DNA from: an uncultured Hyphomicrobiales bacterium
GTDB taxonomy: Bacteria > Pseudomonadota > Alphaproteobacteria > Rhizobiales > JAJFHR01
Reading direction: 5' to 3'
Length of the DNA: 64,000 nt
NCBI GenBank assembly: GCA_964625235.1
Contig: CAZVAZ010000001.1
Location: 857-64,856, forward strand
Position numbers and translations under genes: made by a program. How positions within the stretch are numbered: the stretch's first letter is position 1; every line of letters starts with the position of its first letter. The notes beneath the pieces are model-generated. The model ran no database searches, was not told where the DNA came from, and saw only the letters and a list, made by a program, of their open reading frames with translations. Below are positions 7,277-27,150 of this stretch, piece after piece.

Positions 7277-7290
7277 TTGACCTTGATCAA
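7277..7290. promoter_or_regulatory. FNR/CRP-type box TTGACCTTGATCAA upstream of the Crp/Fnr gene
   Basis: Matches the TTGAT-N4-ATCAA consensus at 9 of 10 positions. Centred about 61 nt upstream of ATG 7345. Confidence 0.6.
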
Positions 7291-7344
7291 AGAAAAGGCA
7301 GCTTGAAATCGCGATAATACGGGTACGGAATTATTCTTCTAAAA

Positions 7345-8070
7345 ATGGAGTTTGCAATGCCGAATTTCACTGCCGCTCGTTATGGATGCGAGGCTGCAGG
7401 TTCTTTTACCTGTATGGCTTCTGCGGATGATAATGGCGATGCTCTTGCACGACTGCCTTTTCAGTTGACCAATATTGAAAATGCTTTGGAAAATGCCCGG
7501 CGTGCACCCTATCCAATTATCGTTATTTCCAGTGGTGCTGCTGGTTTGCAACATTTTCTCAAAGACGGCAGACGAACCATTTCCACAATATTTCTGGCAG
7601 GTGAAGTCCTGGATTTTAGTCAGATACGGGGAAGTGGCGGCTCATTATGTTGCCTCCTTCCGGGCCAGGCCCGGATGTTCAATGCAGTGGTTCTCGAAAA
7701 TCTGCGACAGGAAAATCCACAAGCCTGGTCGAGCCTGATGATTGGTAAATTCAGGTGTTGCAGTCAGACAACCAATCATTCTGTAGACCTTGCCCGCAAG
7801 TCGGCGGTTGAGAAGCTGGCTTCATTTATTTTTGAATGCCGCAACCGCCAGACTGCAGAGCGTGGCAAACTGATAAACCTGATTTTAAACCGAATTGATA
7901 TTGCTGATTATATGGGGTTGAGACCGGAAACACTTTCACGTGCTTTCACCAAACTGAAACGGTTAAAAATGATAGCCTGCGAGTGCGGTGATTATATTCA
8001 TATTCTCAATGAGCCGGCCTTGCGGCAAATTGCAAATGGCGCAGCCGATGAGTTTGGCTGTGCTGTTTGA
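7345..8070 (+). CDS. Crp/Fnr-family transcriptional regulator
   Basis: cNMP-binding-like middle region and C-terminal HTH RIDIADYMGLRPETLSRAFTKLKRLKMI carrying the E-x2-SR recognition motif that FNR-type proteins use on TTGA half-sites. Confidence 0.85.
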   Translation: MEFAMPNFTAARYGCEAAGSFTCMASADDNGDALARLPFQLTNIENALENARRAPYPIIVISSGAAGLQHFLKDGRRTISTIFLAGEVLDFSQIRGSGGSLCCLLPGQARMFNAVVLENLRQENPQAWSSLMIGKFRCCSQTTNHSVDLARKSAVEKLASFIFECRNRQTAERGKLINLILNRIDIADYMGLRPETLSRAFTKLKRLKMIACECGDYIHILNEPALRQIANGAADEFGCAV

Positions 8071-8074
8071 GCAC

Positions 8075-9472
8075 TTATGCCCTTGCGGAAAACCCTGACC
8101 GGGTATTTGCGGGCGCCACCTGACCTACGTCAGACAGGTAACGGTTGATTTTGTTCGCGGTTGCACGCGCCTGTTCTATGCAACTGGCCACCGACACACC
8201 ACCCAGATAATTCCCGGTAACATATAGTCCAGGCCGACGCTGGTGCAAAGCCTCTAGGGTTGAAACTTTATCGCTGTGTCCAATCTCATACTGCGGTAAA
8301 CTGCGGGCCCATTGACGACACCGGGAAAGAACGGGTTGACCACTGATTCCCAGCAGACCTGACAGCTCACGGTGTACCAGATGGCTGAGTTCATTGCTGT
8401 TCAGGCAAGCTGCATCATGGTTGCAACTGCCGCCCACATAGGCAGAAATTGAGACAAATCCATCCGGTGCCCGATTGGCAAACATGGTCGAAGGAAACTG
8501 TGCGCCGTTGATAATACCGCCTGTCCCCGCCACGCTCAAAAATCCCAGACTATCGAGAGGATGGCTAACCTGCTGGCGGGCATAGGCCAGAAACACAACG
8601 CTAAGGGGTGGAGCATCAATCTCAGCTGCGGCGGTTGCTGCTGGCTCATCCAACGGCTCAAGCAGGCTGGCGGCGACGTGAGGCTGAACGGCAAAGACAA
8701 TTGTTCTGGAAGTCAGATTACCTGATCTGTGGGTCTCGATCCTGTAGCCTTGCGGGTGATTTGAAACGGATTTGACTGCTGTTGCGGTTTTAATGCAACC
8801 GGGCATCGCGGTTGCCAGGGTTCTTGGCAAAGTTCCAACACCATCGCGAAACGAAAACAACCGTTTACCTGGCTCACTGCCTTGTCTGGCGTGAAGTATA
8901 CCTCGGGTGACAGAGCCAAACTCCTGTTCCATTTTCATCAATTTGGGAAAGGCTGATTTCAAGGACAGGTTGTGACTGTCTCCGGCAAATATTCCAGCCA
9001 CCAGCGGTGCCATGATTTTGTCGGCAAACTCGATACCAAAACGGCGGCATACAAAGGCGTGAATGCTTTCATCTTCGTCATTTGCTTTGCGCGGGCGCAA
9101 TATCTCTGTGATGAGACGGAACCGGCCACGAAGAGACAAATAGGGCGAAAGCAGGAAACCAGTGCGGTTAATTCCGATACCGTGCAGGGTGCCACCCTGG
9201 CGCAGGTAGCGTTTGCGTACATCATTGCCCAGGTCCAGCCGCTGGTTTTCAATATCGAGGTTTTGTGTCAACTCAAGCGCCTGAGGCACCAGGGTGTTGA
9301 GTGTGGTGGGACCATGTTCCATCAGGAAACCATTGATGCGCTGGGATATGGCGTTGCCGCCAACGGTTTGCTGGCGTTCCAGAACAATGACCCGGCGGCC
9401 GCATCGCTGCAGGTCATAAGCTGTGGTCAGGCCGGAAATTCCACCGCCGATTATGGCAACGTCGTAAGTCAT
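8075..9472 (-). CDS. hemY: HemY-type protoporphyrinogen/coproporphyrinogen oxidase-like FAD enzyme
   Basis: N-terminal dinucleotide fold YDVAIIGGGISGLTTAYDL...VLERQQTVGGN, a typical length of 465 aa, and the C-terminal LYVTGNYLGGVSVASCIEQA motif. ATGA overlap with the upstream radical-SAM gene. Confidence 0.75.
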   Translation of the reverse strand: MTYDVAIIGGGISGLTTAYDLQRCGRRVIVLERQQTVGGNAISQRINGFLMEHGPTTLNTLVPQALELTQNLDIENQRLDLGNDVRKRYLRQGGTLHGIGINRTGFLLSPYLSLRGRFRLITEILRPRKANDEDESIHAFVCRRFGIEFADKIMAPLVAGIFAGDSHNLSLKSAFPKLMKMEQEFGSVTRGILHARQGSEPGKRLFSFRDGVGTLPRTLATAMPGCIKTATAVKSVSNHPQGYRIETHRSGNLTSRTIVFAVQPHVAASLLEPLDEPAATAAAEIDAPPLSVVFLAYARQQVSHPLDSLGFLSVAGTGGIINGAQFPSTMFANRAPDGFVSISAYVGGSCNHDAACLNSNELSHLVHRELSGLLGISGQPVLSRCRQWARSLPQYEIGHSDKVSTLEALHQRRPGLYVTGNYLGGVSVASCIEQARATANKINRYLSDVGQVAPANTRSGFSARA

Positions 9473-10743
9473 GACAGCCCGGGCCTTTTGATGCCCGGTG
9501 GCAGGCCATTTTTGAACCGCTCTTTGGCCAGATGCGAAAGGTCATCTGCCGTCACAATTGACCCGCCCTTTGAGCGCACATCCGCCTCCACCCGGTTTTT
9601 AACCATGCGGCGAACGAAACCGGGTATCCGGGCAACGCGTTGTTCAGCATCTTGTGTCCAGTTGAGTGTTGCTTCTCCCGGCTTCAGGACTTCGATAATT
9701 GCCCCGTTTTGCGGCTGGTATGAACACAGGAAATCTTCTCCCATGAGATTGTTTGAGCGCGCCAGCGGCCGTGCGCGACAACCACCACACAGTTTTTGAT
9801 ATTCACAGATCCCACATCGTCCTTCCAGTTGAGGCTGGCGCAGGGCTGTGAAAATCTCACCATCATTCCAGATGTCGGAAAAACTGCTGTGACGCAAAGA
9901 CCCGCCGGAGGTTTCTATAAACGGGCAGGGGGTAACCTCGCCTTCCGGCGTCACGCGGGCATATCGAGTGCCGGCAATACAGCCGCCGGCTTCATAACCA
10001 TGGGCCATGGTGATCGGCCATTCCGGGTCGAGCTCCAGCGCCAGTCGCTTGAAATGCGGGGCGCACTTAGCGCGTACCATCAATTGTTTTTCATCGTGGG
10101 CAGCCTCGACCACGCGCTTGAGCACCTTGTCGTAATTTTCAATTGAAATATCGGTATATTTCTCACCGCGACCGGTGCACACCAGAAAAAATACATTGAG
10201 CACCAAAGCTTGCGCCTGCCGGGCAAAACTGATCATGTCGTCAATTTCACCGGCCGTATGATCAGTAACCGAGAAATGTATCTGGAAAGCCAGGTTCTCT
10301 TTGCGGCAGGCATCAATGGCCGCCATGGTTTTCAACCAGGCGCCTTTGCGACCGCGAAAATCATCATGTTTTTGCGGATCAAGTGAATCTATACTCAACC
10401 CTATGCCTGCAACGCCGGATTTTTTGAGGCTTTTCACCCGGTCAGATGTCAAAGTGATGCCGTTGGATCCGATAACGACCATCAGCCCGAGCCCGCTGGC
10501 GTGGGCCGCGAGTTCCTCGATGTCCGGGCGCAACAGTGGCTCACCGCCGGTCAAAACAATCATGCATTCCGGCCCAACGTCGGCAATATCACTGATGGCC
10601 TTTTTAACTTCGTCGGTGGACAATTCATCGGTGCTGCCGTTTTTTAGAATTTCGGCATCAAGATAACAATGGGCGCATGAGAGATTACATCGTTTTGTCA
10701 GATTGAAGGCGACAAGAAAAGGAGCGTCTACCGGTCTAGTCAT
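9469..10743 (-). CDS. Radical SAM/SPASM protein (NirJ/AhbC/AhbD-like) with a C-terminal PCP_red-like domain
   Basis: CNLSCAHCY (C-x3-C-x2-C). Cys-rich SPASM region GGCIAG...TPCPF...GRCGICEYQKLCGGCRARP. C-terminal NWTQDAEQRVARIPGFVRRMVKNRVEADVRSKGGSIVTADDL resembles the BchB/ChlB C-terminal domain. Confidence 0.8.
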   Translation of the reverse strand: MTRPVDAPFLVAFNLTKRCNLSCAHCYLDAEILKNGSTDELSTDEVKKAISDIADVGPECMIVLTGGEPLLRPDIEELAAHASGLGLMVVIGSNGITLTSDRVKSLKKSGVAGIGLSIDSLDPQKHDDFRGRKGAWLKTMAAIDACRKENLAFQIHFSVTDHTAGEIDDMISFARQAQALVLNVFFLVCTGRGEKYTDISIENYDKVLKRVVEAAHDEKQLMVRAKCAPHFKRLALELDPEWPITMAHGYEAGGCIAGTRYARVTPEGEVTPCPFIETSGGSLRHSSFSDIWNDGEIFTALRQPQLEGRCGICEYQKLCGGCRARPLARSNNLMGEDFLCSYQPQNGAIIEVLKPGEATLNWTQDAEQRVARIPGFVRRMVKNRVEADVRSKGGSIVTADDLSHLAKERFKNGLPPGIKRPGLS

Positions 10744-12397
10744 TATTTAACTCGGTTGCACCGGGCTCCGGGCACATGGCTTTTCGCGCTTTGGCAAATC
10801 CACCTTCGGCTACTTCACCGTCAACGCGGGTTGCACCATTTGCGCGTACATAGTCTTCAATGGTCTGTCTGGCTTTAGCCCGAAATATTTCCGGCACTCT
10901 TTGCAATCGCGCCAGACAGGCTGCTGCCCACTCCAGTTCCGTGTGGCAAGTCTCGGCAACAAAGGGTTCCACGTGCTGCGGCAATACCTCGGTGGCGGCA
11001 TCACGCCGGGCGGATTTTTCCGCTCTCAGGCGAATATTTTCCTTCACCGACTGATCGTTCAGTGTGGTCAGTATGGCAGTTGCCGCGGCATTCCAGGCGA
11101 GTGGTTCGAAACCATCGCTAACGGGTGTTTCACTGCCTTCAGTATTGCCGCCAGGCATCATTTTTTTCATCACGTCTTCAACAAAACGGCTAGTGATGAA
11201 TGTATGTCCCTCTGCGTGGGCCTGGCGAATAACCGAGGTGCGGGCGATACCGCGGACAAAATCGGGTGCGCGCGACATCATCGCATCGGCTTCTTCAGAC
11301 CACATGATGGTTTCTTCAGCGATAACATCAAGCGAGGGATAATGGGTCTTTTGACCAATCCAGATGTGACAGGGTGCCACCCTCAACAGGTTTTCCGTAT
11401 TGCCGCCGATGTCGAGTCCTTCATCAGCATGGACGCCAACTTTGCCCACCATCAACAAGCTCGCTTCAACTCTTTCGAGGTATTTTCGGATGGCCTGAAA
11501 CGGTTTTCCTGAAACCAGTTCACAGGTGATGTTGACGCCTTCTTCTTCAGCTACAGTTTTGGCGATGGCAAGATGCGATTGGTAGATTTTTGCAATACCA
11601 TCATCGATCAGTTCCTCGTGCAGCTGTTCCTGCTCTTTGAAACGAAATACCTTGCCCGCCTCATCAGAGAGAACACCGGCAATCTTGTTAAAGGCAACAT
11701 AGTGATAATAAGGATCGTAAGCGGCAACCGCGTGCACATCTGCGCCGGTTTGACGGGCAATCATCAAAGCCGATTTGAGAACCCCGAATGACTGGGGCGA
11801 GCCGTCAATTCCGACAACTATCGGCCCGTCACCAATGCTCATTTTGCGGTGCTTGATCACCAGCACATCAATTGGCGCGCGCCGTACAACGCGTTCACAA
11901 ACGCTGCCGATAATACTGCCTGCAACCGCTCCCAGCCCGCGAGAGCCTAAGGCGAGCACGTCAAATTCACCGGTTTTGGCAGCATCAATGATGCAGGTGT
12001 AGTTTTTGCCTTCGGGACTTAACCTTTTGAAGTTTACATCGGCATTTTTACATTTTTCCTGTGCGTTATCATGATAGCTGTCGGAGATGATACCAAGACC
12101 CTTGCCAATCAGGTCTTCATGCACATCACGCTGATGTTCCATTTCGGTTTCATAGCGATACCGTTCCGGCAATCCGCCTTCCATCTGCTTGAAACGCCGG
12201 TCGTGCATTTTAGCGGCGTAGGCATGAATGCCGATTATGGTTCCATTGATCGGCTTGACCAGTTTGATAGCTTCGAGAACTGCCTGATTGGCGAGATCTG
12301 ATTGATCAAGGGCGACAAGAATATTGTTCAGGCAAACCGGGGCTGAGCTGATCTGTTCATCAGCAATTTTTTCATTAAGCGCCAATGCTGTAGTCAT
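10736..12397 (-). CDS. Tandem universal-stress-protein (Usp) domains fused to three PCP_red-like repeats
   Basis: Two Usp modules (ILVALDQS...GSRGLGAVAGSIIGSVCERVVRRAPIDVLVIK; IVVGIDGS...LLMVGKVG). C-terminal repeats include MWSEEADAMMSRAPDFVRGIARTSV... and LEWAAACLARLQRVPEIFRAKARQTIEDYVRANG.... ATG 12397 has the SD GGAGCAAAAT; the track start 12433 would overlap the upstream mini-ORF. Confidence 0.7.
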   Translation of the reverse strand: MTTALALNEKIADEQISSAPVCLNNILVALDQSDLANQAVLEAIKLVKPINGTIIGIHAYAAKMHDRRFKQMEGGLPERYRYETEMEHQRDVHEDLIGKGLGIISDSYHDNAQEKCKNADVNFKRLSPEGKNYTCIIDAAKTGEFDVLALGSRGLGAVAGSIIGSVCERVVRRAPIDVLVIKHRKMSIGDGPIVVGIDGSPQSFGVLKSALMIARQTGADVHAVAAYDPYYHYVAFNKIAGVLSDEAGKVFRFKEQEQLHEELIDDGIAKIYQSHLAIAKTVAEEEGVNITCELVSGKPFQAIRKYLERVEASLLMVGKVGVHADEGLDIGGNTENLLRVAPCHIWIGQKTHYPSLDVIAEETIMWSEEADAMMSRAPDFVRGIARTSVIRQAHAEGHTFITSRFVEDVMKKMMPGGNTEGSETPVSDGFEPLAWNAAATAILTTLNDQSVKENIRLRAEKSARRDAATEVLPQHVEPFVAETCHTELEWAAACLARLQRVPEIFRAKARQTIEDYVRANGATRVDGEVAEGGFAKARKAMCPEPGATELNND

Positions 12398-12414: not shown

Positions 12415-12525
12415 TTATCCGTACAGCAGCCAATAGCCAACAATCAAAGCTATAACTGCAACATTTACAGCCGCACCAGCCAGTACAAAACCGTCAAAGG
12501 CATTAAGCTTTTTCTTGGGTGTCAT
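12415..12525 (-). CDS. 36-aa single-pass membrane mini-protein
   Basis: Manual translation: MTPKKKLNAFDGFVLAGAAVNVAVIALIVGYWLLYG. Basic N-terminus plus one TM helix. It fits exactly between the cupredoxin and Usp genes. Below the track size cutoff. Confidence 0.5.
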   Translation of the reverse strand: MTPKKKLNAFDGFVLAGAAVNVAVIALIVGYWLLYG

Positions 12526-12551: not shown

Positions 12552-13289
12552 TCAGAATGACAGGTCAATTTTGGTGTCTGCGCCAGCAGTGACCTTTACC
12601 TTGCCACTCTTGATCTCACCTAAAAACCCCTGCCACAGCCGAATTTTGTATTCGCCGGGCGGTACGTTATCGATGGTGAATTCACCGTTTTCACCAACAA
12701 CAGCATAATATGGGTTTGAGGCAACAAACATATAGGCGTGCATGAAGTCATGTGCGTCGCACTCAATTTTCATGCCAGCGCCTTTGCGCATTTTTATTTT
12801 TTTGGTTACTTTGTCCCCGGCGTTGGGCTGCGATACGTTTATTGCCGTGCGTCGCGCCCTGCCGATAAGTTCGTAGGTATGAATATTATGCAGGGTTTCG
12901 TCCGAATTCATGGCGGTCAGATTTCCACCATTCGCTATCACTGAGAAGGCAGGAGTAAATTCGCATTTTTTCTGATTGAGAGTTACATTCATCAACTCTT
13001 TCGGAAATGCCTTGCCCTGCTTGACCTTGTAGAGAAAGACAACTGCATTTTTTACTGTGCCGTTTTCTATTATAACAAAGGGAACGGTTCGATTACCTTC
13101 ACCGCAGATTTGCGTATCCTTGGAAATGGTGAATATTTTTGATTTTTCAACAGCGCTGCCTGCCAGGACTTTTCCCGAAATACTGCCACCGTCGGTGACC
13201 TCTATTTCCGTGTACTTTTTGGCTTGAGCCAGTCCGGTAAAACCGACCAGTGCAACTGTGCAAAGCATCCCTTTAAACAGTTTATTCAT
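12552..13289 (-). CDS. Secreted cupredoxin (amicyanin-like type-1 copper site) flanked by carboxypeptidase-regulatory-like Ig segments
   Basis: Signal peptide MNKLFKGMLCTVALVGFTGLAQA. Candidate Cu ligands are HNIH and C-D-A-H-D-F-M (C-x2-H-x2-M, as in amicyanin). C-terminal GEFTIDNVPPGEYKIRLWQ. Confidence 0.65.
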   Translation of the reverse strand: MNKLFKGMLCTVALVGFTGLAQAKKYTEIEVTDGGSISGKVLAGSAVEKSKIFTISKDTQICGEGNRTVPFVIIENGTVKNAVVFLYKVKQGKAFPKELMNVTLNQKKCEFTPAFSVIANGGNLTAMNSDETLHNIHTYELIGRARRTAINVSQPNAGDKVTKKIKMRKGAGMKIECDAHDFMHAYMFVASNPYYAVVGENGEFTIDNVPPGEYKIRLWQGFLGEIKSGKVKVTAGADTKIDLSF

Positions 13290-13324: not shown

Positions 13325-15490
13325 TCAGGCAACGGCTTGAATATCTCCATTGTCCGAATGGCTGAAAAGATCACTAAGAGCTTCGATAGCTACCAGCCAT
13401 ATCCGCTTTTTATCCTCATCCTTGAGAATTTTTAGATATTTATCCGCCGCTTCATTTGCGTTCCAGCCCTTGAGCATGGCGACAATATCGCGGCGGTGCA
13501 TACCATCATGCGCCAGGGTTAATTCAATAAGAATATCCATTTGTGAGCGCCGGCAGGCAAGGGCTTGAGCAGCGGCAATTCGAACCCCGGAATAATTATC
13601 TTCCAGTGCCAGCAACAAGCTCTCCACATGACCTTTCTTGCGACCAAGTGCTGTGACGGCTTCCCGGCGAACATGCACATCTTCATCACCGCACAACTCA
13701 ATAAGGGTTTCTTCAACATCTTTGCCTTTGATGTATGCAAGACAGCGTGCGCTGAGCATTCGAATAAGGCGATCCTGGTGTTGTGTTTCTGTTCGGATTG
13801 CCGGGTACAGGCGTTTTTTCAACTTGCCTCGTGCAGTTCCGATGAGAGCCAGGCTTTCCAGGCAGGCCTGTTTGAGCTCAACGTCATCATCTTCAAGGGC
13901 CTGATTCAGCACCCGGGTTATCCCAGGAAAATCAAAGTCACCCAGCAGACAGGCGGCAAACCGGCGGACATCTTCATGGGGGGCCACCTTGACGTCCAGC
14001 GATACCTTGCTTTTTCTCATTGCCCGCGATTTTGAGATTTTGATGAACTTTTTATCGTCTTCAGAAAGTTCAACTTCCTCAGCTTCCGGCTTTTCTTCCT
14101 CGCCCGGTTCGGTGCGAATTCCATCGCGCAATATCTGGTCCAGTGTCGAAGTGGCCGGGGGTTGTTCTTGGGGTGCAGCAGCCTCAACGTCTTCTGGCGC
14201 TGCTTCTTCTGTGGCGTCACTTTCCTCGACCGCCTCAACAAGTTCTCCGCGAAGGGCTGCCAGGAGACTGTCACCGGCTCTGTTTGGCCATTTGCCTGAG
14301 GCGGCAATTTTTGCCAGGGCAGACATAGTTGAGATACGGATCTGTCTGTTGCTGTTTGCCACAGTATCCAACAGGTAGGGCAAGCCAGCATCGTTGAGCA
14401 GGCTAAGCGCTTCAATTAAGCCAAGTCGAAAAACCAGTGGTTGTTCAGAGTTTTGCAGTGCCCCGCCGAGACTCTTTGCTGATGCCTCTCCGATCAGGGT
14501 TGCCCAGGCAACAGCTGCGGCACCGGCAACATCCGGTATGCCGACAATCGCCGTGCGAACAACTTCTGAAAAGCCTTCTTTTTTGAACGCTTGAGGTTCA
14601 GCGGCAATTGATCTGAAGATTGTCTGCCTGACTTCCGCAGATTTGTCCGACAATCTCTCCATCGCCAGATCAGGTTCTTTTGCGCTTATTGTTTTGGCAA
14701 TCAGGATGCGCACATCAACGTGTTCGTCACTGAAAAACGCGGCAAGACGCGCATCTTCGGGATCAGTATCAATTATTTTCTCGAGGGCAACATAGCGTAC
14801 TTCACCTGCTTTATCGGCCAAACATTTTTGCAAAAGATCATCAATTTCGGCAGATTGCCCCGGCTCCAAAACCGAACAGACCCGGCGGCGCATGCGTGCA
14901 TCACCCTGGTTATATAATGAGGTCAGTGCGGCCACACCTTCGGTGCCCAGTTGGACCAGAACCGGGACTGTAACCTGCGTCAGGTCCTGACCTTCGTCGT
15001 TTTTCAATTCGTTCATAATTACCGCTACGGATTCAGCTGTTCCAATTTTACCGAGCGCCTTGATTGCTGCCAATTGTATGTCCAGCCAGTCATCCCAGCC
15101 CGTAGCGTAATATTCGTCTCCCCAGTTTATCTCTTCATCCCGGCCGGCGACCATTGTGTGCAACCAGGGGACAACCTGTCGATGGTTTGCTTTGGCAAGC
15201 AATTCAATGGCAGACAGTTTGACTTCAGGGCAGGGATCACCGAGAAGATTTTCCATAATGGCACCGGCGGCTTGTGTCTCTTCGAGTTCCAAGAGGGCGG
15301 CTGCGGCATCAGTGCGTACATCTTCATCCTCATCCAGGAGTGCCTGTTGCAGCACTGGTCCGGCTCCGGGATGAGCAATTTTTCCCAACGCTGTTGCAGC
15401 GGCACAACGATGAATATCCACCCCCGACAAAAGGAGTTTGCTCAGTTGGGTAAATGCTCTTTCTTTTGCAGATTTTGCTCTTGTTACCAT
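13325..15490 (-). CDS. HEAT-repeat (PBS-lyase-type) protein, 721 aa, cytoplasmic
   Basis: Many repeats of the D/E-x-VR-x-A-A-x-ALG type (DEDVRTDAAAALLEL, DVHVRREAVTALG, YSGVRIAAAQALA). Acidic linker near the middle. No signal peptide. Confidence 0.75.
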   Translation of the reverse strand: MVTRAKSAKERAFTQLSKLLLSGVDIHRCAAATALGKIAHPGAGPVLQQALLDEDEDVRTDAAAALLELEETQAAGAIMENLLGDPCPEVKLSAIELLAKANHRQVVPWLHTMVAGRDEEINWGDEYYATGWDDWLDIQLAAIKALGKIGTAESVAVIMNELKNDEGQDLTQVTVPVLVQLGTEGVAALTSLYNQGDARMRRRVCSVLEPGQSAEIDDLLQKCLADKAGEVRYVALEKIIDTDPEDARLAAFFSDEHVDVRILIAKTISAKEPDLAMERLSDKSAEVRQTIFRSIAAEPQAFKKEGFSEVVRTAIVGIPDVAGAAAVAWATLIGEASAKSLGGALQNSEQPLVFRLGLIEALSLLNDAGLPYLLDTVANSNRQIRISTMSALAKIAASGKWPNRAGDSLLAALRGELVEAVEESDATEEAAPEDVEAAAPQEQPPATSTLDQILRDGIRTEPGEEEKPEAEEVELSEDDKKFIKISKSRAMRKSKVSLDVKVAPHEDVRRFAACLLGDFDFPGITRVLNQALEDDDVELKQACLESLALIGTARGKLKKRLYPAIRTETQHQDRLIRMLSARCLAYIKGKDVEETLIELCGDEDVHVRREAVTALGRKKGHVESLLLALEDNYSGVRIAAAQALACRRSQMDILIELTLAHDGMHRRDIVAMLKGWNANEAADKYLKILKDEDKKRIWLVAIEALSDLFSHSDNGDIQAVA

Positions 15491-15553: not shown

Positions 15554-15567
15554 TTGACATATGTCAA
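15554..15567. promoter_or_regulatory. FNR-type box TTGACATATGTCAA upstream of the HEAT-repeat operon
   Basis: Perfect palindrome with a TTGA-N6-TCAA core, centred about 70 nt upstream of start codon 15490. Confidence 0.6.
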
Positions 15568-18384: not shown

Positions 18385-18969
18385 TTAGCTGTGCAGATTG
18401 TTTTCGCGACCAAAAATAAGTCCGAAAATGCCGGTGGCATAAACACTGTCACCTTCGATTTCGAGCAAAATTTGCGGCAGACTCTGGTAAGCCTGACCCG
18501 AGATCAAAATGCCGTGGCGGGTGAGGTCATAAGTTGAAAGATGAAGCGGACAGGCTCCAAGTGATTTGGTTTCAGCCTTGTAACTTCCCTCCAGTGTGCT
18601 GCCCTGGTGGGTGCAGGCATAATTGTATGCGACAATATCCTGGTCCTTACCTAAACCGCCGCCGGCTTTAACGCCGAGCTTTACCACCATGTTCTCAGAA
18701 TAGGCGCCCTCATCAGGGTAGTTGAAGTCAAACGGTTCATCCTGCTTCAGTTCAGATAATTTACAGATATACTTACGCGGGTAATTGGTGATCTGGGCGG
18801 GCACACTTTTCGCCTCGGCAGTCCCAGCGTTCAAGGTTATCATCACGGTGGCGGTTGTCGCCCCCGTACCAATTAGAAAGTTGCGGCGTGAAACCAGACA
18901 CTTGTGACCGATTTGTTTTGCCAATTTCTTTCTTGACGAGATGTTTTCATAGACAGTTGTTTTGGCCAT
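18385..18969 (-). CDS. idrB: AioB/IdrB-family Rieske [2Fe-2S] small subunit with Tat signal
   Basis: Twin-arginine signal SRRNFLIGTGATTATV. Rieske ligand motifs CTHQG and CPLH. AioB-like C-terminus GLIFGRENNL. Confidence 0.75.
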   Translation of the reverse strand: MAKTTVYENISSRKKLAKQIGHKCLVSRRNFLIGTGATTATVMITLNAGTAEAKSVPAQITNYPRKYICKLSELKQDEPFDFNYPDEGAYSENMVVKLGVKAGGGLGKDQDIVAYNYACTHQGSTLEGSYKAETKSLGACPLHLSTYDLTRHGILISGQAYQSLPQILLEIEGDSVYATGIFGLIFGRENNLHS

Positions 18970-18981: not shown

Positions 18982-20136
18982 TTAATTTTTTGCCGGATTG
19001 GGCAATGGCGCATATGGTGGAAGTTTTGGTGGTTCGATTACCAGTTCCTCCCCGCTGAAGGCATCAAGGAAAGCCACCAGATCTTCGACTTCTTTTTCAG
19101 ACAGTCCCAGCGGCTTGACTAAAGGCGATTTGCTTTTCGCCATGGTGCCATCGGTAAAATCATTTTCGCCGCCACCCTGGTTGTAAAATTCAACAACCTC
19201 GGTCAGATCCCAGAACGCACCATTGTGCATATAAGGAGCGGTGTACTTGAGATAACGCAGAGGGGCGGTCCTGAACTTGCCCATGTCGACCTTTTGCTTG
19301 GTGCGGTAATAGAGACCTGCATCGTCTTTTATTTTACGATACATTTCCTGCGTCACGCCTTTGGCATATTGCTCATAGCGGAAGGTGATTTGGGCCAGGC
19401 CGTCTTCTTCCCACCGTTCGGAAGGAGGTACACCCAGGTTATAATATTTCTGGTCGGTGGCAAGAGCGCCATTATGGCAGGCAATACAACCAGCCTTGCC
19501 ATTAAACAGCTCCATGCCGCGTACCTGCTGAGTGCTGAGGGCTTTTTTGTCACCACGCAAATATTTATCCAATGGTGTATTGTTGTGGATCATCGTGCGT
19601 TCGAACGATGCAATGGCCTTCCAGGCATCTGAAATCAACGGCCATTCAGTGCCAAATGCTTCTTTGAAAAGTTTGCGGTATTCCGGGATGAAAGCCAGTC
19701 GTGCTTCCATCACATCATTTTCACCATTGCCGGCAACGGCCCCTTTGGCGGCACTTGGAGCCTGCTTTTCCAAAGACGAGGCTGCACCGACCCAGAACAG
19801 TTTCAACAGGTAAGCAGAGTTTACCACCGTTTGACTGTTGCGCCAGTGAACTGTGCCGGGATAACCGCGTGACAATGCATCACCAAACCCCCAACCCTGA
19901 TCGGGCTCGTGACAGGTAACACAGCCGGTGGATGCATCACCACCAAGCCGGGGGTCCCAGAATAACATCTTGCCAAGCTTGATTTTAACTTCCGACTGCT
20001 TGTTATCCAGTGGGATGGGAGGATCTCCCAGAGGTGCTAAAGGTGGCACGTCTGATCCCGCATATGCCATGCCAGCAGTGATGGCAGTGATGAGCGCTCC
20101 AGCAAGGAGACCCGATATTTTCTTTGTATATTTCAT
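18982..20136 (-). CDS. Dihaem cytochrome c peroxidase (CCP/MauG family), IdrP-like
   Basis: Signal peptide. Two haem c motifs (CVTCHEPDQGW and CIACHNGA). FRTAPLRYLKYTAPYMHNG family motif. Confidence 0.85.
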   Translation of the reverse strand: MKYTKKISGLLAGALITAITAGMAYAGSDVPPLAPLGDPPIPLDNKQSEVKIKLGKMLFWDPRLGGDASTGCVTCHEPDQGWGFGDALSRGYPGTVHWRNSQTVVNSAYLLKLFWVGAASSLEKQAPSAAKGAVAGNGENDVMEARLAFIPEYRKLFKEAFGTEWPLISDAWKAIASFERTMIHNNTPLDKYLRGDKKALSTQQVRGMELFNGKAGCIACHNGALATDQKYYNLGVPPSERWEEDGLAQITFRYEQYAKGVTQEMYRKIKDDAGLYYRTKQKVDMGKFRTAPLRYLKYTAPYMHNGAFWDLTEVVEFYNQGGGENDFTDGTMAKSKSPLVKPLGLSEKEVEDLVAFLDAFSGEELVIEPPKLPPYAPLPNPAKN

Positions 20137-20154: not shown

Positions 20155-21276
20155 CTAGTTTTTTACAGCGCGCCAGTTTTTAATGGCGGTATAATTGGTG
20201 GGGATTTTTTTCTTCCAGACAAATTCCTTGGTGTTCAGTGGATCGCCTGTCAGAGCCTCCAGGAAGTCAACAAGATCCTGTTGCTCAACGAATGTCAGTT
20301 TGAGCGGCTTTAAATCCGGGTTTTTGTTTTTGTCTTCACCGCCACCTTGATTGTAAAAAGCAACCACTTCAAATAGCGATTTAAACATGCCGTTGTGCAT
20401 ATAAGGTGCTGTGAATTTCAATTCGCGCAAAGTCGGTGTAACGAACTTTCCAACATTGGAGCCATCGACTTTGGGGTTGATAATACCTGCACCGACGTCA
20501 CGGCGGATATTCATGATATTTTCAATGCCCATAAATGTGCCAAAGGCTACATAAGTCATATGACGCATTGGATCAGACCAGATTTCCGGATTTTCCGGAA
20601 CACCCAGATTATATGCTTTGTCGTTGGTGAAATTTGCCCCGCTATGGCAGGCGGCACATTGAGCTTTGCCTTTAAACAAGTCATATCCGCGTTTGGCCGA
20701 TGCTGTCATGGACCCTTTGTCAAAGGGGGAGTTGCGCGAAGTCAGTGTTTTCAAATACTCAGGTATGGCTTTTCGGACCGCACCGTTGGAAGGCTCGCCA
20801 TAGCCAGCATCTTTAAACATCTTTACATATACAGGGTCCTGCTTGAGGCGCTCCTGCATCAGGCGCATGTCCATGTTCATGATGTAATCTTCAGTGATCA
20901 TCTCGCGTGTGACATCATTCAGATTGGTGCCAATGCGACCGTCAAGGAACCAGTTTTTACGGACTGCGGTATTTATCAAGGTAGGTGTGTTGCGAAACCC
21001 TTTTGAACCCGGATAGGCTTTGGACAAAGCCAGACCGTCGCTGAAGCCTTTGTCAGGCTGGTGGCAGGTGGCACAACTGATTGCGGCATCGCCGGACAGC
21101 CTTGGGTCAAAAAATAAACGTTTGCCCAGTTCGGCTTTTTTGGCATCGACCTTGATCTGTTTTATTGGCCCCTGACCGTCCTGGCCAGCAATTACGGTAC
21201 CCGATAAAACAAAAAAACCAATCAGCCCCACGGACAGCGCCAGCATACATTGTGTTTTGCTACCGAACGTCTTCAT
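20155..21276 (-). CDS. Dihaem cytochrome c peroxidase (CCP/MauG family), IdrP-like paralog
   Basis: CATCHQPDKGF and CAACHSG haem motifs, plus FVTPTLRELKFTAPYMHNG. ATG 21276 has the SD AAGGGAG and begins a signal peptide (MKTFGSKTQCMLALSVGLIGFF). The track start 21378 lies inside the FNR box. Confidence 0.85.
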   Translation of the reverse strand: MKTFGSKTQCMLALSVGLIGFFVLSGTVIAGQDGQGPIKQIKVDAKKAELGKRLFFDPRLSGDAAISCATCHQPDKGFSDGLALSKAYPGSKGFRNTPTLINTAVRKNWFLDGRIGTNLNDVTREMITEDYIMNMDMRLMQERLKQDPVYVKMFKDAGYGEPSNGAVRKAIPEYLKTLTSRNSPFDKGSMTASAKRGYDLFKGKAQCAACHSGANFTNDKAYNLGVPENPEIWSDPMRHMTYVAFGTFMGIENIMNIRRDVGAGIINPKVDGSNVGKFVTPTLRELKFTAPYMHNGMFKSLFEVVAFYNQGGGEDKNKNPDLKPLKLTFVEQQDLVDFLEALTGDPLNTKEFVWKKKIPTNYTAIKNWRAVKN

Positions 21277-21364: not shown

Positions 21365-21378
21365 TTGACGAATGTCAA
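21365..21378. promoter_or_regulatory. FNR-type box TTGACGAATGTCAA upstream of the peroxidase/Rieske/molybdoenzyme operon
   Basis: TTGAC-N4-GTCAA, centred about 95 nt upstream of ATG 21276. Confidence 0.55.
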
Positions 21379-21460: not shown

Positions 21461-23728
21461 CTATGCAGAAAATTTGCGCCGCTGCAACCGCACCAACCCC
21501 AGGAACAACAGGCCGGCAAACAGACCTGTTCCGGCTGGAACAGCGAAAAGGGTTAACCTGTCTTCGCGTGCGCCCAGCTTCAGCCAGTACCATGAGGTAA
21601 GAGAATGGCGGCCACCTTTTTCACCTGCAAGCCCATCCCAGTTGGCAAAGGAAATCGGTATGTATTTTTCTTCCTCAAATTGTAAATCCAGCGCATTGTC
21701 CGTAACCAGACTGCGGTTGAAAACAACCCGCCACTGTCCATTTTTCCAAACGCCTTTTGCTGCAAGTACACCTGCGGCATTACGTGGGGTGGGGGGAAGA
21801 TCGGGCCCGTTTGCATCCAGCAATATGGTGCGCGCATCGTCTTTGGGTTCAACACTCGGTGCCTGCCAGTACCACATGTTAACAGCACGTTTTTTATCGC
21901 CGTGACGAAATCCGGGCTTTTCGGTTGTAACAGGAATTATTCGCGGCAACTGAATAGCAATTGCATCGCGGGATGGCTTTACACCAGCCAGTCTGTATTG
22001 TTTCTCCAGCTTGTCTCCCGGCACCGAATAGGTGCGGTCATCCACATCAACGCGTATGGCCAGATTCTTGTCATTGAAGAGAACGCGGATTGTGACCTGG
22101 TCGTTCAGGGAAAAGAATAATCGCGGCTCCTTGATAATGTTCGGCGCCATGGCAAATGTCATCGGCGATGCTTTATCCCATTCAGGATCGCCTGGTTCTG
22201 TTGGAAGCTCACCATCCACGCGCAGGGCATTGATAACTGTTTCGCCCTGAGACAGCTGAACGGCGGTGTTTCTTAACGACATAACATAATTGGAAATGTT
22301 CCAACGATCATCTGTTGACATAGCGGTTGTATGCTCAGGCATTGGAGTGGAGCGAATACCCGTTGAGATACGTTCAAACACATCTTTCACCGTTTTGGTG
22401 AAGCGCCAGGTCTCCGGTCGTGTCAGGTTGCGTGGCCAAATGCGGTCTTGCCAATCATCTTTCAGTTTTTTGCCGGAGGTAATATTACCACGCCCGGACA
22501 GCCCGTGACATTGTGCGCAGGATTTCACAAACAATTTCCAGCCTTTGGCGATTGACACAGGCGAGGTTTTTACCTGTTGGCCAGGATCAATGGGTATGTT
22601 CTCAAGCTCTTCTTCATCCCACTCACCAAACTTCTTGATTTTCAATATCAGACCGTCCACTTCGCGTGGAGTGAGAAAGGATTTCCATGGTGGCATGGAT
22701 GTACCCGGCAGACCTTGCAGAATAATCTTGCGCAGATCGTCGTCATAGGGAAATTCATTATCTGCACTGGTTGTCTTGTATTTGAATGAGCCCAGGGTGA
22801 AGTCGCGCGGTTTGGGGTAGAGAAATTCAGCCGCCGGGCCTGCACCATCACCTTCCACACCATGACACTGGGCACAGCGTTTGGCGTAAACAGTCCCGAT
22901 TGAAGCTTCCTCAGTTTCTGTATTCTTTAAGGAAGCAGCAGTCTCTGCTGTCTTGTCCTGGGGCTTTTCAAGTTCCCATGATCGCGGTGCATAGCCGGTG
23001 TAATCATAAAGGAATGTGATGAGTTTCCAGATATCATCTTCCTTCAACGTCTCTTTCCAGGCTGGCATGGCAGATGCCCACGGCGTACCTTCGCGCGGCA
23101 GACCGGGGCCGCCGGTGGTTATGCGCCAGAACAGGTATGATTCCTGCAATTGCGCAATAGTGCCAACATCCTGAAAATTAATCGGCCGGGGGTTGAATGC
23201 CGGAGCAAAAATCCCGGCACCATCAAGCGTGTCACCGTGGCAAAATAAACAATTCCTGTAGTAAAGTTTGCTGCCTTCTTCCACCGCTTTTAGATAACCT
23301 TCAGAACCTTTTGGATTGGCATCACGGACCGGGTTGGTCAATTTGAGCAGGTTGAAGGTTTTGCCATAGACCTTGAGTGATGAAGGTGGTGCGGGGTGCA
23401 CCGTGCGCAGTTCTACCGGCGAGGCCGTTGTTGGCTTTATCTTGCTGTAGGTGACGCCAGCGACGCCACCAACAATCACAATCAGGGCAAACCCGCGGGC
23501 CACGGCCATTTTCGGGCTGCCCAGAAGGGTAGTAATTGGCGCGGCGAACCTTTTGGCGCTAGTATTCTCGAAAGTTGCTACCAGGACAACTGCGACCGCT
23601 ATGATTATCATATACTGAATGACGATCGATTGCGGTAAGGGTGGCGAAATAATTTGTGTGAACAGCACGTAGGCACCGACAAGTGTCAGAATAGACAGAA
23701 ACAGGGGATGTGAAAAAAAACGCTTCAT
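21461..23728 (-). CDS. Membrane-anchored trihaem cytochrome c fused to an EB_dh (ethylbenzene dehydrogenase gamma/DOMON-like) haem-binding domain
   Basis: N-terminal TM helices. Three CxxCH motifs (CLFCH, CAQCH, CAQCH). C-terminal domain has the pattern PEWDKASPM...IRVLFNDKNLAIRVDVDD...DAIAIQL...VNMWYWQA...WKNGQWRVVFNRSL...FANWDG, followed by a terminal TM helix. Confidence 0.75.
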   Translation of the reverse strand: MKRFFSHPLFLSILTLVGAYVLFTQIISPPLPQSIVIQYMIIIAVAVVLVATFENTSAKRFAAPITTLLGSPKMAVARGFALIVIVGGVAGVTYSKIKPTTASPVELRTVHPAPPSSLKVYGKTFNLLKLTNPVRDANPKGSEGYLKAVEEGSKLYYRNCLFCHGDTLDGAGIFAPAFNPRPINFQDVGTIAQLQESYLFWRITTGGPGLPREGTPWASAMPAWKETLKEDDIWKLITFLYDYTGYAPRSWELEKPQDKTAETAASLKNTETEEASIGTVYAKRCAQCHGVEGDGAGPAAEFLYPKPRDFTLGSFKYKTTSADNEFPYDDDLRKIILQGLPGTSMPPWKSFLTPREVDGLILKIKKFGEWDEEELENIPIDPGQQVKTSPVSIAKGWKLFVKSCAQCHGLSGRGNITSGKKLKDDWQDRIWPRNLTRPETWRFTKTVKDVFERISTGIRSTPMPEHTTAMSTDDRWNISNYVMSLRNTAVQLSQGETVINALRVDGELPTEPGDPEWDKASPMTFAMAPNIIKEPRLFFSLNDQVTIRVLFNDKNLAIRVDVDDRTYSVPGDKLEKQYRLAGVKPSRDAIAIQLPRIIPVTTEKPGFRHGDKKRAVNMWYWQAPSVEPKDDARTILLDANGPDLPPTPRNAAGVLAAKGVWKNGQWRVVFNRSLVTDNALDLQFEEEKYIPISFANWDGLAGEKGGRHSLTSWYWLKLGAREDRLTLFAVPAGTGLFAGLLFLGLVRLQRRKFSA

Positions 23729-23730
23729 GG

Positions 23731-24564
23731 TTATTCCGGCAGGTTTTTTATATAATCAATGATCAGGTTCAATTCGCTCACCCGCATCTGCTCGCCAAAG
23801 TCATCCGGCATTATTTCCGCCTCAAAGCCTTCGGTGATTTCTGCATTGGGGTTGATAATTGCTTCGGCAATCTTGGCATCATCCATTTTTTTGGAAAGAC
23901 CATTCAATTTGGGGCCGATATCGGCCTCAGACCCCTCCAGATCATGACAGGCACCGCAACTGAACTTATCCAACGCTGCAACCGCTGTGGTTGCGGGGCC
24001 TTCTTCGTCATCACCGTCTTCACTGCTGGTAACAGGTGTTTCATCCGCACTTGGCAGGGGTACTGTGGGTGTGAGCCCGGCCCTGTCCTGCATAAAAGCG
24101 GTTATTGCATTTATCTCAACAGCGGACAGTGAGATTGGTGGCGAGTCAATTTTTGGCATTTGACTGATCGTATCGCCGGAGCCCTTTTTGCCAAATCCAG
24201 CAACCACATATATCGAAGGATCCAGCATTGATTCATGGAGATACTCGCCAATCGCTTCTGCCCCCTGTTTGGTTTTGGCAGCACCGGTGTAACGCGGATC
24301 AGCAAGGCGCTCGGGGAGAACCCTGGCGAGATCGAGTGCCAGAAGATCAGGAGCGCGAAGCCGCTTGTTGTGACACAGGGTGCAGGTGCCTTTACCGGAA
24401 AACAGTTGTTCCCCAAGCGATACCATGCCCGTCATATTGAGGCTGGCCGTATCAATTTCCTCTTCTGCGGGCGGGTCTCCCTGCACTTGCGGCAATATAT
24501 TGGCAAACCCGGTGTAAATGAGCAGGACAAAGAGCGAAAAACCCATAACGCGAAGGAAGGTCAT
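23731..24564 (-). CDS. Membrane-anchored dihaem cytochrome c
   Basis: N-terminal TM helix. CTLCH and CGACH haem motifs separated by an acidic linker. 4-nt overlap with the CydA-like gene. Confidence 0.8.
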   Translation of the reverse strand: MTFLRVMGFSLFVLLIYTGFANILPQVQGDPPAEEEIDTASLNMTGMVSLGEQLFSGKGTCTLCHNKRLRAPDLLALDLARVLPERLADPRYTGAAKTKQGAEAIGEYLHESMLDPSIYVVAGFGKKGSGDTISQMPKIDSPPISLSAVEINAITAFMQDRAGLTPTVPLPSADETPVTSSEDGDDEEGPATTAVAALDKFSCGACHDLEGSEADIGPKLNGLSKKMDDAKIAEAIINPNAEITEGFEAEIMPDDFGEQMRVSELNLIIDYIKNLPE

Positions 24565-26481: not shown

Positions 26482-26604
26482 TCAATGGGTGGATACAACC
26501 CCATGGTCATAGATCAACAGCCACCAGAAAAAGACCAGCATGGCAATGGTAGTGAGTGCAAATATCGTTTTGCCAATTACTTCGCTGTTTTCATTTGACG
26601 CCAT
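26482..26604 (-). CDS. 40-aa single-pass membrane mini-protein, first gene of the unit
   Basis: Manual translation: MASNENSEVIGKTIFALTTIAMLVFFWWLLIYDHGVVSTH. Below the track cutoff. Positioned between the FNR box and the next mini-ORF. Confidence 0.45.
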   Translation of the reverse strand: MASNENSEVIGKTIFALTTIAMLVFFWWLLIYDHGVVSTH

Positions 26605-26672
26605 AGCAGTGCCGTTTCCCAAAACTGTTTTTCCTAGTGAGGGGAAGTATGCTTGTTGATGATGTTTTGTAA

Positions 26673-26686
26673 TTGACCAAGATCAA
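26673..26686. promoter_or_regulatory. FNR-type box TTGACCAAGATCAA upstream of the bd-like/cytochrome c operon
   Basis: TTGAC-N4-ATCAA, centred about 75 nt upstream of ATG 26604. Confidence 0.6.
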
Positions 26687-26703
26687 TAAGGCGAAATTGG
26701 TTT

Positions 26704-27003
26704 TCAACGGCCAATGCAGGTTTGAATAAGATGAATGCGTAACCGCTCCATATATGCAGTAACGTTCTCATCGCTTTGTTGAGGGACAAGAAAAATCAGT
26801 TTTGCAGCGACAATGAAAGGTCGCTTGCTGGCCTGTCCAACAGGTTCGCCCGTTGTCAAAATGATACCAACCCGCTCAATCACCCCGGTTTGATCGGTGC
26901 AGTATCGTGGTATTGCCGAGCGTTCGGCATATTGTTCTGCGGCTGAGAACACCAGCAGTAACACTGCTGTTGTCACAGCAAATACCAGCAAGATTTTCTT
27001 CAT
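26704..27003 (-). CDS. Hypothetical small membrane-anchored or secreted protein
   Basis: MKKILLVFAVTTAVLLLVFSAAEQ... N-terminal hydrophobic anchor. No recognisable family. The track start 27060 would run into the IS fragment. Confidence 0.45.
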   Translation of the reverse strand: MKKILLVFAVTTAVLLLVFSAAEQYAERSAIPRYCTDQTGVIERVGIILTTGEPVGQASKRPFIVAAKLIFLVPQQSDENVTAYMERLRIHLIQTCIGR

Positions 27004-27044
27004 TTTCGATTTACTTTGAGTTTCAATTTGTGATCTGGTTCCAT

Positions 27045-27150
27045 TGTCCTGGGCATCCATTTTCGCCGCCGATTATTCAACATGCCATTTGGTTGTATTT
27101 CAAGCTTCCACTCAGCTATCGGGATGTGGAAGATTTGCTGGCGAAACAAT
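27045..27150 (+). mobile_element. Remnant of an IS6-family transposase gene (N-terminal ~35 codons only)
   Basis: Translation PGHPFSPPIIQHAIWLYFKLPLSYRDVEDLLAKQ parallels the IS26-type N-terminus KGRHFQRDIILWAVRWYCKYGISYRELQEMLAERG. The similarity then stops and no intact ORF follows. Confidence 0.6.

Follow-up and report, generated by a model that had tools for sequence, protein, structure and literature searches.

We analyzed a 64,000-nucleotide stretch (the window) of contig CAZVAZ010000001.1 from an uncultured Hyphomicrobiales bacterium (assembly GCA_964625235.1). An open reading frame (ORF) list combined with Pfam and NCBIfam searches places 16 co-oriented minus-strand genes at 7277-27060, fifteen in three packed units plus a further gene, orf118. 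This block is a composite low-oxygen respiratory locus in which two conserved systems are joined, an idrP1P2BA reductase (unit 2) and a module built around a CydA-like protein, here called bd-like (unit 1), with an accessory operon (unit 3). All long ORFs between 7277 and 27150 lie on the minus strand, the sole exception being a regulator gene. Within units the genes overlap or are separated by a few bases up to ~40 bp, and the two gaps between units measure ~200 bp. An earlier reading made from the DNA letters alone (the sequence-only reading) had proposed three tightly packed co-oriented units, which the ORFs, Pfam and NCBIfam bear out, and nearly all of its domain calls were confirmed by the two databases. 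It had claimed eighteen genes; the count is the fifteen that it listed plus orf118, which it overlooked. The units and genes, with protein lengths in amino acids (aa), are:

26622 to 21461, minus strand: unit 1, with mini2, mini1, CydA-like protein, dihaem cytochrome c and trihaem cytochrome c-EB_dh
21276 to 15692, minus strand: unit 2, with two cytochrome c peroxidases (CCPs), the Rieske subunit and the molybdenum (Mo) subunit
15490 to 8075, minus strand: unit 3, with HEAT, p245, a mini-protein, Usp-PCP_red, radical SAM (rSAM)-PCP_red and HemY
26704..27060, minus strand: orf118, 118 aa including a signal peptide, unmatched in Pfam and NCBIfam
26482..26622, minus strand: mini membrane protein 2 (mini2), ~46 aa
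26325..26510, minus strand: mini membrane protein 1 (mini1), probable start 26453, ~42 aa
24561..26318, minus strand: CydA-like "bd-like" protein, 585 aa, matching PF01654 over profile positions 10-251 of 418 only
23731..24564, minus strand: membrane-anchored dihaem cytochrome c (c2), 277 aa, with an N-terminal helix and 2 CxxCH motifs
21461..23728, minus strand: trihaem cytochrome c fused to an EB_dh haem-b domain (c3-EB_dh, alt-NxrC-like), 755 aa, with 3 CxxCH motifs, PF09459 and transmembrane (TM) helices at both ends
20155..21276, minus strand: IdrP, dihaem cytochrome c peroxidase/MauG family, PF03150, 2 CxxCH motifs, start at 21276 giving 373 aa as in public records
18982..20136, minus strand: IdrP, dihaem cytochrome c peroxidase/MauG family, PF03150, 2 CxxCH motifs
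18385..18969, minus strand: IdrB, Rieske 2Fe-2S small subunit, with a Tat signal (SRRNFL), TIGR02694 at 113 bits and CTH...CPLH motifs
15692..18367, minus strand: IdrA, Aio/Idr-type Mo-bisPGD catalytic subunit, 891 aa, with an N-terminal 3Fe-4S site and PF18465 (Rieske_3), PF00384 (Molybdopterin) and PF01568 (Molydop_binding)
13325..15490, minus strand: HEAT-repeat protein, 721 aa, cytoplasmic, with PBS-lyase-type repeats
12552..13289, minus strand: p245, periplasmic protein of 245 aa, with an H/C/H/M type-1-copper-like pattern and a CarboxypepD_reg beta-sandwich
12415..12525, minus strand: mini-protein, a single helix of 36 aa kept in related loci
10736..12397, minus strand: protein with two Usp and two PCP_red domains, start taken at ATG 12397
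9469..10743, minus strand: radical SAM/SPASM enzyme with a C-terminal PCP_red domain, AhbC/AhbD/NirJ group (Pfam/NCBIfam)
8075..9472, minus strand: HemY-type protoporphyrinogen/coproporphyrinogen oxidase (FAD), TIGR00562 at 276 bits (cut-off 98)

To ask how widely the units are linked, we scanned one genome per species with an IdrA alignment, which recovered 80 loci (75-96% identity), and searched these with all window proteins by tblastn. The 80 idrA loci are nearly all from Alphaproteobacteria (Hyphomicrobiales, Rhodobacterales, Rhodospirillales, Kiloniellaceae, Sneathiellales, Roseibium/Labrenzia and Pseudovibrio). Positions of the bd-like module were scored at the 43 idrA loci flanked on each side by 6 kb or more; other denominators are the loci with enough flank for the feature. 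Both peroxidase genes are present at 66/66 loci and the Rieske gene at 65/66, a HEAT gene directly follows idrA at 59/68, and a p245 gene is present at 46/67. The bd-like module lies upstream in the window order at 11 of the 43 loci, downstream of p245 in a 35-46%-identical version at 19, and further downstream in inverted orientation at 2. It is thus found at 30/43 well-flanked loci, or 32/43 if the two inverted ones are counted. Many species-level alphaproteobacterial genomes and metagenome contigs repeat the arrangement, and their boxes (described below) occupy the same three gaps.

The reverse search, a metagenome scan from the CydA-like protein, added 80 further loci. Where the bd-like protein is at least 69% identical to that of the window and enough downstream sequence is available, idr genes come next in 27/29 cases. 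Both exceptions belong to one lineage and carry a transposase fragment after the module; the idr-less locus L084/L085 may be a rearrangement, and so is not strong evidence alone, because a DDE transposase fragment follows its module. Across loci, the identities of IdrA and of the CydA-like protein to those of the window fall together. Linkage of the units beyond this window, for which the sequence-only reading had proposed gene-neighborhood searches, is therefore found from both directions.

Idr and the bd-like module are joined in three different gene orders. A Kiloniellaceae genome carries one uninterrupted co-directional string (CCP-CCP-Rieske-IdrA-HEAT-p245-CydA-like-cyt c-cyt c-(cyt c)2-EB_dh-cyt c-cyt c). 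The complete genome of cultured Profundibacter amoris (CP032125) has ferrochelatase and Crp/Fnr genes followed by orf118-mini-mini-CydA-like-cyt c-c3/EB_dh-CCP-CCP-Rieske-IdrA-HEAT. In Roseibium album, a Crp/Fnr gene is followed by CCP-CCP-Rieske-IdrA-HEAT only, with molybdenum cofactor genes upstream.

Unit 2 is, by family membership and gene content, an idrP1P2BA-type iodate reductase cluster, and activity on iodate is predicted. IdrA scores 406 bits, above the cut-off, against TIGR02693 (arsenite oxidase large subunit), a family that carries the NCBIfam name "arsenate reductase (azurin)". Its 120 best database matches are 74-96% identical, and those that are named are alphaproteobacterial. 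It shares 75% identity with the protein of Labrenzia alba (L077), one of the DIR gene carriers in Table S3 of the paper (Reyes-Umana) that defined the IdrA clade, and two adjacent dihaem peroxidase genes are the published discriminator of idr from aio loci. The earlier call of an Idr/Aio-type molybdoenzyme is thus upheld. Arsenite oxidase AioAB, which passes electrons to periplasmic high-potential partners (azurin or cytochrome c), has the same enzyme family and cofactor set, and both subunits here exceed the TIGR02693/TIGR02694 cut-offs. However, IdrA is a distant match to solved AioA structures (~275 bits), and two peroxidase genes adjoin it in the window.

The published name idrABP1P2 implies the order idrA-idrB-idrP1-idrP2 (taken from the name alone), whereas the order in the window is P-P-B-A. 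The window cluster resembles idrABP1P2 of Pseudomonas sp. SCT, Denitromonas sp. IR-12 and Roseovarius azorensis in its AioA-like Mo subunit with 3Fe-4S, Tat-exported Rieske protein and two adjacent dihaem peroxidases. The published description is of four genes; here, HEAT commonly follows idrA and a bd-like module is linked in ~70% of well-flanked loci. Related marine alphaproteobacteria reduce iodate only under oxygen limitation, with idr induced 43-102-fold and IdrA recovered from an activity band. The idrABP1P2 genes alone, from the cluster of an alphaproteobacterial metagenome-assembled genome of an oxygen-minimum zone, give iodate reduction in E. coli (PMC13455634). Aerobic marine idr carriers cannot grow anaerobically on iodate, and the authors call the physiological use of the genes unclear. 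According to the paper defining the iodate reduction island, the idr cluster is horizontally transferred and the surroundings of idrABP1P2 are poorly conserved. The idr authors compared it with the perchlorate reduction genomic island, which has likewise spread horizontally and combines a respiratory oxyanion reductase with accessory genes for electron transfer and regulation. Its enzyme family and accessory genes differ, and we found no chlorite-dismutase-type gene in the block.

The CydA-like protein of unit 1 has the CydA fold but is not a canonical subunit. It matches CydA in the PDB by sequence (E-value 8.5e-6), with similarity limited to the N-terminal haem core. The residues His65, Glu152, His232 and Met393 are invariant in homologs down to 45% identity; equivalents of His19 and His186 and one channel Glu are thereby kept, and the other proton-channel Glu is replaced by Tyr. 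An AlphaFold2 (AF2) model built with 32 homologs (pLDDT 71) has ~14 TM helices after the leader, and the top 10 PDB matches to it in Foldseek are all CydA. No Q-loop is present: the loop after the His232 helix is short and the Pfam match does not extend beyond the haem core. Because the genes are too tightly packed to accommodate cydB, we consider it absent from the cluster, and the sequence-only description of a CydB-less bd-like protein holds. Compared with canonical CydAB(X), the fold and N-terminal haem-binding helices are shared, whereas here CydB, the Q-loop and the quinol-binding region are missing, there are ~14 rather than 9 helices, and the partners are c-type cytochromes.

The EB_dh region of the trihaem protein is similar to EbdC and to Kuenenia NxrC. 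Residues 278-485 of the same protein (its second and third cytochrome c domains) match PDB 6h5l_B, a "conserved hypothetical cytochrome protein", at E-value 4e-37, far above any other solved cytochrome. With their longest starts, the ORFs of the two mini-proteins overlap by 29 bp; mini1 probably starts at ATG 26453 (MFSNKW...), because its homologs in public records are 40-52 aa long. The orf118 protein is conserved (37-75% identity): related loci, Profundibacter amoris and the idr-less contig L084 carry it immediately ahead of the bd-like module or immediately behind HemY.

We compared unit 1 with the published gene sets of OR-N2, TO_1 and the clusters beside nitrite oxidoreductase (NXR). Operons of OR-N2 (Murali et al.) encode multiple cytochromes c, an EbdC homolog and a CydA-like protein with 14 helices. 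Beside NXR, Nitrospira, Nitrospina and Kuenenia have a cluster of a c-haem alternative NxrC, mono- and dihaem cytochromes c, two cupredoxin-like proteins and a 14-helix bd-like protein that is described as having no quinol-binding residues. Its function is called "enigmatic", possibly that of an alternative complex III linking NXR and quinone. In the published view of OR-N2 and TO_1, cytochrome c donates to an oxygen-reducing site, and TO_1 (Ca. Manganitrophus) is treated as an oxygen reductase.

Unit 1 and p245, if the latter is a cupredoxin, match these descriptions component by component and appear to be an already described gene set. We treat the NXR-associated cluster, OR-N2 and TO_1 as one type. 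Shared with it are a 14-TM CydA-like protein with haem b ligands and no Q-loop, membrane c-type cytochromes, a TM-anchored c-haem EB_dh (NxrC-like) protein, a location next to a periplasmic molybdoenzyme and, if p245 is one, cupredoxin-like proteins. In contrast, the partner there is NXR, a type II DMSO-reductase, and here a reductase of the Aio/Idr family; the hosts here are heterotrophic marine Alphaproteobacteria, with Crp/Fnr-type sites or a sigma-54 two-component system for control. The mini-proteins, orf118, HEAT and the HemY/rSAM/Usp-PCP_red trio of our loci are not mentioned in the portions of the published descriptions available.

The enzymes of unit 3 point to tetrapyrroles, given a HemY, an AhbC/AhbD/NirJ-type enzyme, three PCP_red domains (a domain named after the BchB C-terminus) and PBS-lyase-type HEAT repeats. 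Among known haem synthesis enzymes (CgoX/HemY, AhbD, NirJ), HemY passes TIGR00562, and the radical SAM/SPASM protein is closest to NirJ2 (300 bits) and AhbD (286 bits), both below the equivalog cut-off of 500, so it is assigned to the wider group only. Unlike AhbD and NirJ, it carries PCP_red as an additional domain and comes together with a Usp-PCP_red protein, and the block has no ferrochelatase. In Profundibacter amoris CP032125 a ferrochelatase gene (L083 7294-8334) lies directly beside the Crp/Fnr gene flanking the bd-like/idr locus; taken with HemY and the AhbD-like enzyme, it would complete a coproporphyrin-type branch of haem synthesis. We found nothing relevant on PCP_red (PF08369) in the literature searched. 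An alignment of 19 HEAT proteins has 20 near-invariant positions and no recognizable metal or catalytic motif.

The residues H134, C177, H180 and M183 of p245 (C-x2-H-x2-M) and a Cys pair are invariant in 27 homologs (31-77% identity). This pattern is consistent with the cupredoxin assignment of the sequence-only reading, but p245 itself has no significant Pfam match: the Copper-bind profile (PF00127) was found in 2/27 homologs at E-value 0.02 (Pfam, E-values up to 1), and the match to a blue copper protein in the PDB has an E-value of 0.32. A single-sequence AF2 model (pLDDT 39) gave no basis for a fold search. The protein nevertheless fits, by its residues, the cupredoxin-like member of the NXR-associated set. 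A second, divergently oriented p245-like gene is present at genome-scan loci L023, L031, L034, L040, L062, L064 and L068.

Unit 3 and orf118 go primarily with unit 1 rather than with idr, because the Usp-PCP_red/rSAM/HemY trio tracks the window-type module and because HEAT, p245 and the trio adjoin bd-like modules that have no idr in view. The trio follows idr at 10/11 window-type bd-like loci and at 0/25 loci with the other bd-like type. A 537-kb metagenome contig without idr genes in view carries the trio, the gene of a 166-aa protein and orf118 immediately ahead of a kinase/regulator pair and a bd-like module. In loci whose CydA-like protein is more distant (60-66% identical), HEAT-p245-mini-Usp-PCP_red-rSAM-HemY are placed divergently beside mini-CydA-like-c2-c3/EB_dh. 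We dropped an alternative division, in which HEAT and p245 are idr genes and the trio alone belongs with the bd-like protein, since divergent loci have HEAT-p245-mini-trio beside bd-like modules without idr in view. The weakly similar HEAT gene that Roseibium-type loci keep with idr alone is not accounted for by grouping unit 3 with unit 1. In the window, the idr unit is placed between unit 1 and unit 3.

Several divergent loci have features of their own. On L160, DNA methylase/restriction-type genes lie between c2 and c3-EB_dh of the bd-like module and after it (12680-14143 and 17605-18525), and this module may be disrupted or carry a mobile insertion. Giant proteins with Big_1/invasin repeats (~1950-2040 aa) adjoin divergent idr-less bd-like modules on two unrelated contigs (L157 12397-18252, L160 661-6786). 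Three independent contigs with the divergent HEAT-trio/bd-like arrangement (L145, L146, L147) end 1.5-2 kb after c3-EB_dh, which suggests a repeat or assembly-breaking element at this point; idr may or may not follow beyond it.

Control of the block was assessed from its regulator gene, upstream boxes and boundaries, which are:

7345..8070, plus strand: Crp/Fnr-family regulator, a divergent member closest to FixK, convergent with the HemY gene
7277..7290, no strand assigned: Crp/Fnr-family box TTGACCTTGATCAA, 55 bp upstream of the regulator gene
15554..15567, no strand assigned: Crp/Fnr-family box upstream of HEAT, position kept in related loci
21365..21378, no strand assigned: Crp/Fnr-family box upstream of the idr unit, position kept
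26673..26686, no strand assigned: Crp/Fnr-family box upstream of mini2 and the bd-like unit, position kept
27063..27150, plus strand: remnant of an IS6-family transposase N-terminus, ~30 codons, the right boundary

Each of the three units has an exact TTGAY-N4-RTCAA box in front of it, and every transcription unit has a Crp/Fnr-family site ~57-95 bp ahead of its first start codon. The window holds 5 exact copies of TTGAYNNNNRTCAA against 0.56 expected, and 0/100 shuffles reach 5. Four of the five are intergenic (7277, 15554, 21365 and 26673), so that the prediction of a box for each unit and another for the Crp/Fnr gene is confirmed, and the positions before mini2, the first CCP and HEAT are kept in related loci although the spacers differ. 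The fifth exact box (TTGAC-N4-GTCAA, 33516-33529) sits within an amidase ORF (33228-34694) in a peptide-transporter/amidase region, and is probably a chance match given these unrelated surroundings.

The sequence-only reading had called the block FNR-controlled. Sites of the TTGAT-N4-ATCAA type are present at promoter distance (four exact and intergenic) and conserved, but the adjacent regulator best matches FixK (64 bits, cut-off 300) and its sequence lacks the FNR-type Cys cluster C-x2-C-x5-C. A global FNR encoded elsewhere in the genome may act on the boxes. Sister lineages instead have, ahead of the bd-like module or idr, a PAS histidine kinase with a sigma-54 response regulator, or a BTAD regulator. 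We found the PAS kinase with a sigma-54-dependent regulator before the idr operon or the bd-like module at L023, L025, L031, L034, L040, L062, L064, L068 (about 3000-6800), L086, L087, L090, L093, L102, L110 and L114. Since lineages differ in this way, the structural genes are the conserved part and the regulators are interchangeable. A scan of the block for sigma-70 promoter and terminator consensus sequences was uninformative.

At the right boundary, the IS6 fragment noticed earlier is real (73% identity to annotated IS6 transposases, E-value 1e-6). However, the earlier description of the block as an island is overstated, as composition does not show mobility: guanine-plus-cytosine (GC) content is ~0.50 in the block and in the near flanks, so the proposed comparison of the two does not set the block apart, no tRNA genes were found across the 64-kb window, and the 30-codon IS6 remnant is on one side only. 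Composition deviates more at 47000-55000 than anywhere in the respiratory block: there, a minus-strand run (AcnX, biotin carboxylase, two carboxyltransferases and CoA-transferase III) has a GC content of 0.55-0.59 against ~0.50 in the rest of the window.

We predict, tentatively and with a probability of roughly 0.45, that the bd-like module is a conduit for electrons from quinone to Idr. Electrons would leave the quinone pool through the bd-like protein, acting like the alternative complex III proposed beside NXR, and would pass via the c haems to the EB_dh haem b, then to the cupredoxin-like protein and on to the Rieske, 3Fe-4S and Mo centers of IdrAB, where iodate would be reduced. The two peroxidases would remove reactive by-products. 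The Usp-PCP_red, rSAM and HemY proteins, probably with HEAT, would supply or tailor haem for the bd-like module rather than mature the molybdoenzyme, and low oxygen would switch expression on through the Crp/Fnr-type sites. Electrons here would then take, in the forward direction, the route that has been suggested for NXR in nitrite oxidizers and anammox bacteria. We favor the conduit because the module recurs beside periplasmic molybdoenzymes of two unrelated families and exists in strict anaerobes. The sequence-only reading had divided the units into an electron-input complex, a terminal reductase and a cofactor-maturation set. That division remains viable, but unit 3 is not obviously an Idr maturation set, given the distribution of the trio and its company with idr-less bd-like modules.

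Several observations weigh against the conduit. No quinol-binding site is recognizable in the CydA-like protein, the published view of OR-N2 and TO_1 has electrons arriving from cytochrome c, and the cupredoxin assignment of p245 is by motif only. The putative haem-tailoring role of the trio comes from family membership below equivalog cut-offs. The bd-like module is not required for Idr activity, because idrABP1P2 alone reduced iodate in E. coli (PMC13455634) and characterized iodate respirers are modeled with bc1 and soluble cytochrome c (cytochrome c551) as donors. No bd-like module is in view (within 6-10 kb) at 12-14 of the 43 well-flanked idrA loci, including Roseibium and Labrenzia. In the reverse direction, no molybdoenzyme gene was found around divergent bd-like modules in several loci with 5-7 kb beyond the module, which have adhesin-like giants, ABC transporters and unrelated genes instead.

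The main rival explanation is that the bd-like module is a terminal oxidase fed by cytochrome c or cupredoxin and co-expressed with Idr at low oxygen; Idr itself would be fed by bc1 and soluble cytochrome c. Such an oxidase might protect Idr by removing O2 that inactivates it, or use up O2 or peroxide formed during iodate reduction; the model of Yamazaki for Pseudomonas SCT includes both O2 formation and a terminal oxidase. The CydA-like fold with its kept His ligands, one channel Glu and invariant Met is compatible with an oxidase, cytochrome c is the obvious donor to a protein lacking a Q-loop, and in the Kiloniellaceae string the module is followed by a faint FixO-like cytochrome. Carriers are aerobic, reduce iodate when oxygen-limited and do not grow on it anaerobically, the module also occurs without idr genes in view, and the TO_1 literature treats the complex as an oxygen reductase; an oxidase fed by cytochrome c is the commoner reading in the OR-N2/TO_1 literature. 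However, an obligatory O2-reducing role is argued against because the module is conserved in strictly anaerobic anammox bacteria. Its recurrence beside periplasmic Mo enzymes of two unrelated families, the Tyr in place of one proton-channel glutamate, and the lack of a demonstrated oxygen reduction for this class in the published sources, as far as available, also count against it. We consider the oxidase, in any of these roles, possible but somewhat unlikely.

Two further explanations appear less likely than either the conduit or the oxidase. Idr and the bd-like complex with its haem genes could be independently useful low-oxygen modules, clustered and co-transferred without functional coupling. 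Many idrA loci without the module, bd-like loci that show no idr, variable regulators, the IS remnant at the block edge and the reported horizontal transfer of idr would all agree with this. It is nevertheless distinctly improbable given three different joined gene orders (one an uninterrupted string), idr directly after 27/29 window-type modules, the parallel fall of IdrA and CydA-like identities, and box positions kept for all three units. Alternatively, the locus might run as an oxidative chain, as with NXR or arsenite oxidase, in which a high-potential donor (for example iodide or hypoiodous acid) is oxidized and its electrons reach a bd-like oxidase by way of cupredoxin and cytochromes c. 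The architecture mirrors the NXR, alt-NxrC, cytochrome c, cupredoxin and bd-like set of nitrite oxidizers, and the AioAB precedent of donation to azurin or cytochrome c, the family name with "azurin", and the aerobic lifestyle of carriers in which the use of idr is unclear would fit. But close relatives reduce iodate and induce idr with it, heterologous expression yields reduction (PMC13455634), iodide oxidation with O2 gives very little energy (IO3-/I- at +0.72 V), and Crp/Fnr-type control suggests expression at low oxygen. This direction is very improbable.

The sequence-only reading regarded the locus as an undescribed system. Every component belongs to a known family, so it is not a new kind of system, and unit 1 with the cupredoxin-like protein matches the published NXR-side set. 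The partnership of Idr with a bd-like module and haem operon is, however, apparently undescribed: we found no paper on idrA with cytochrome bd, or on iodate with bd-like proteins, in the literature searched, where most subscription journals are missing, so that a prior description is possible. The 2024 and 2026 papers on marine carriers cover idrABP1P2 alone.

In the literature consulted, the bd-like complex is discussed mainly in hard-to-grow lithotrophs, namely nitrite oxidizers and anammox bacteria. Here it is found in heterotrophic marine Alphaproteobacteria, including the cultured Profundibacter amoris, and adjoins an enzyme for which both substrate and reaction direction have been established in relatives. 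The locus bears on the dispute over a terminal oxidase in iodate reduction, and a dedicated membrane module with shared boxes is a candidate for the unexplained oxygen-limited iodate reduction of marine aerobes. Surveys of oxygen-minimum zones that score idrABP1P2 alone overlook a conserved accessory set, which could separate physiological types of iodate reducers. A broader proposal, which we consider unlikely, is that the bd-like, alt-NxrC, cytochrome c and cupredoxin module is a general, reversible and energy-coupled adaptor resembling alternative complex III. It would plug unrelated periplasmic high-potential molybdoenzymes (NXR and Idr) into the quinone pool, with its own haem-tailoring pathway (HemY, the AhbD/NirJ-like rSAM-PCP_red enzyme, Usp-PCP_red and HEAT) making or inserting a special haem for the bd-like subunit. 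If so, the oxygen-limited reduction of iodate by marine "aerobes" would conserve energy through the bd-like complex.

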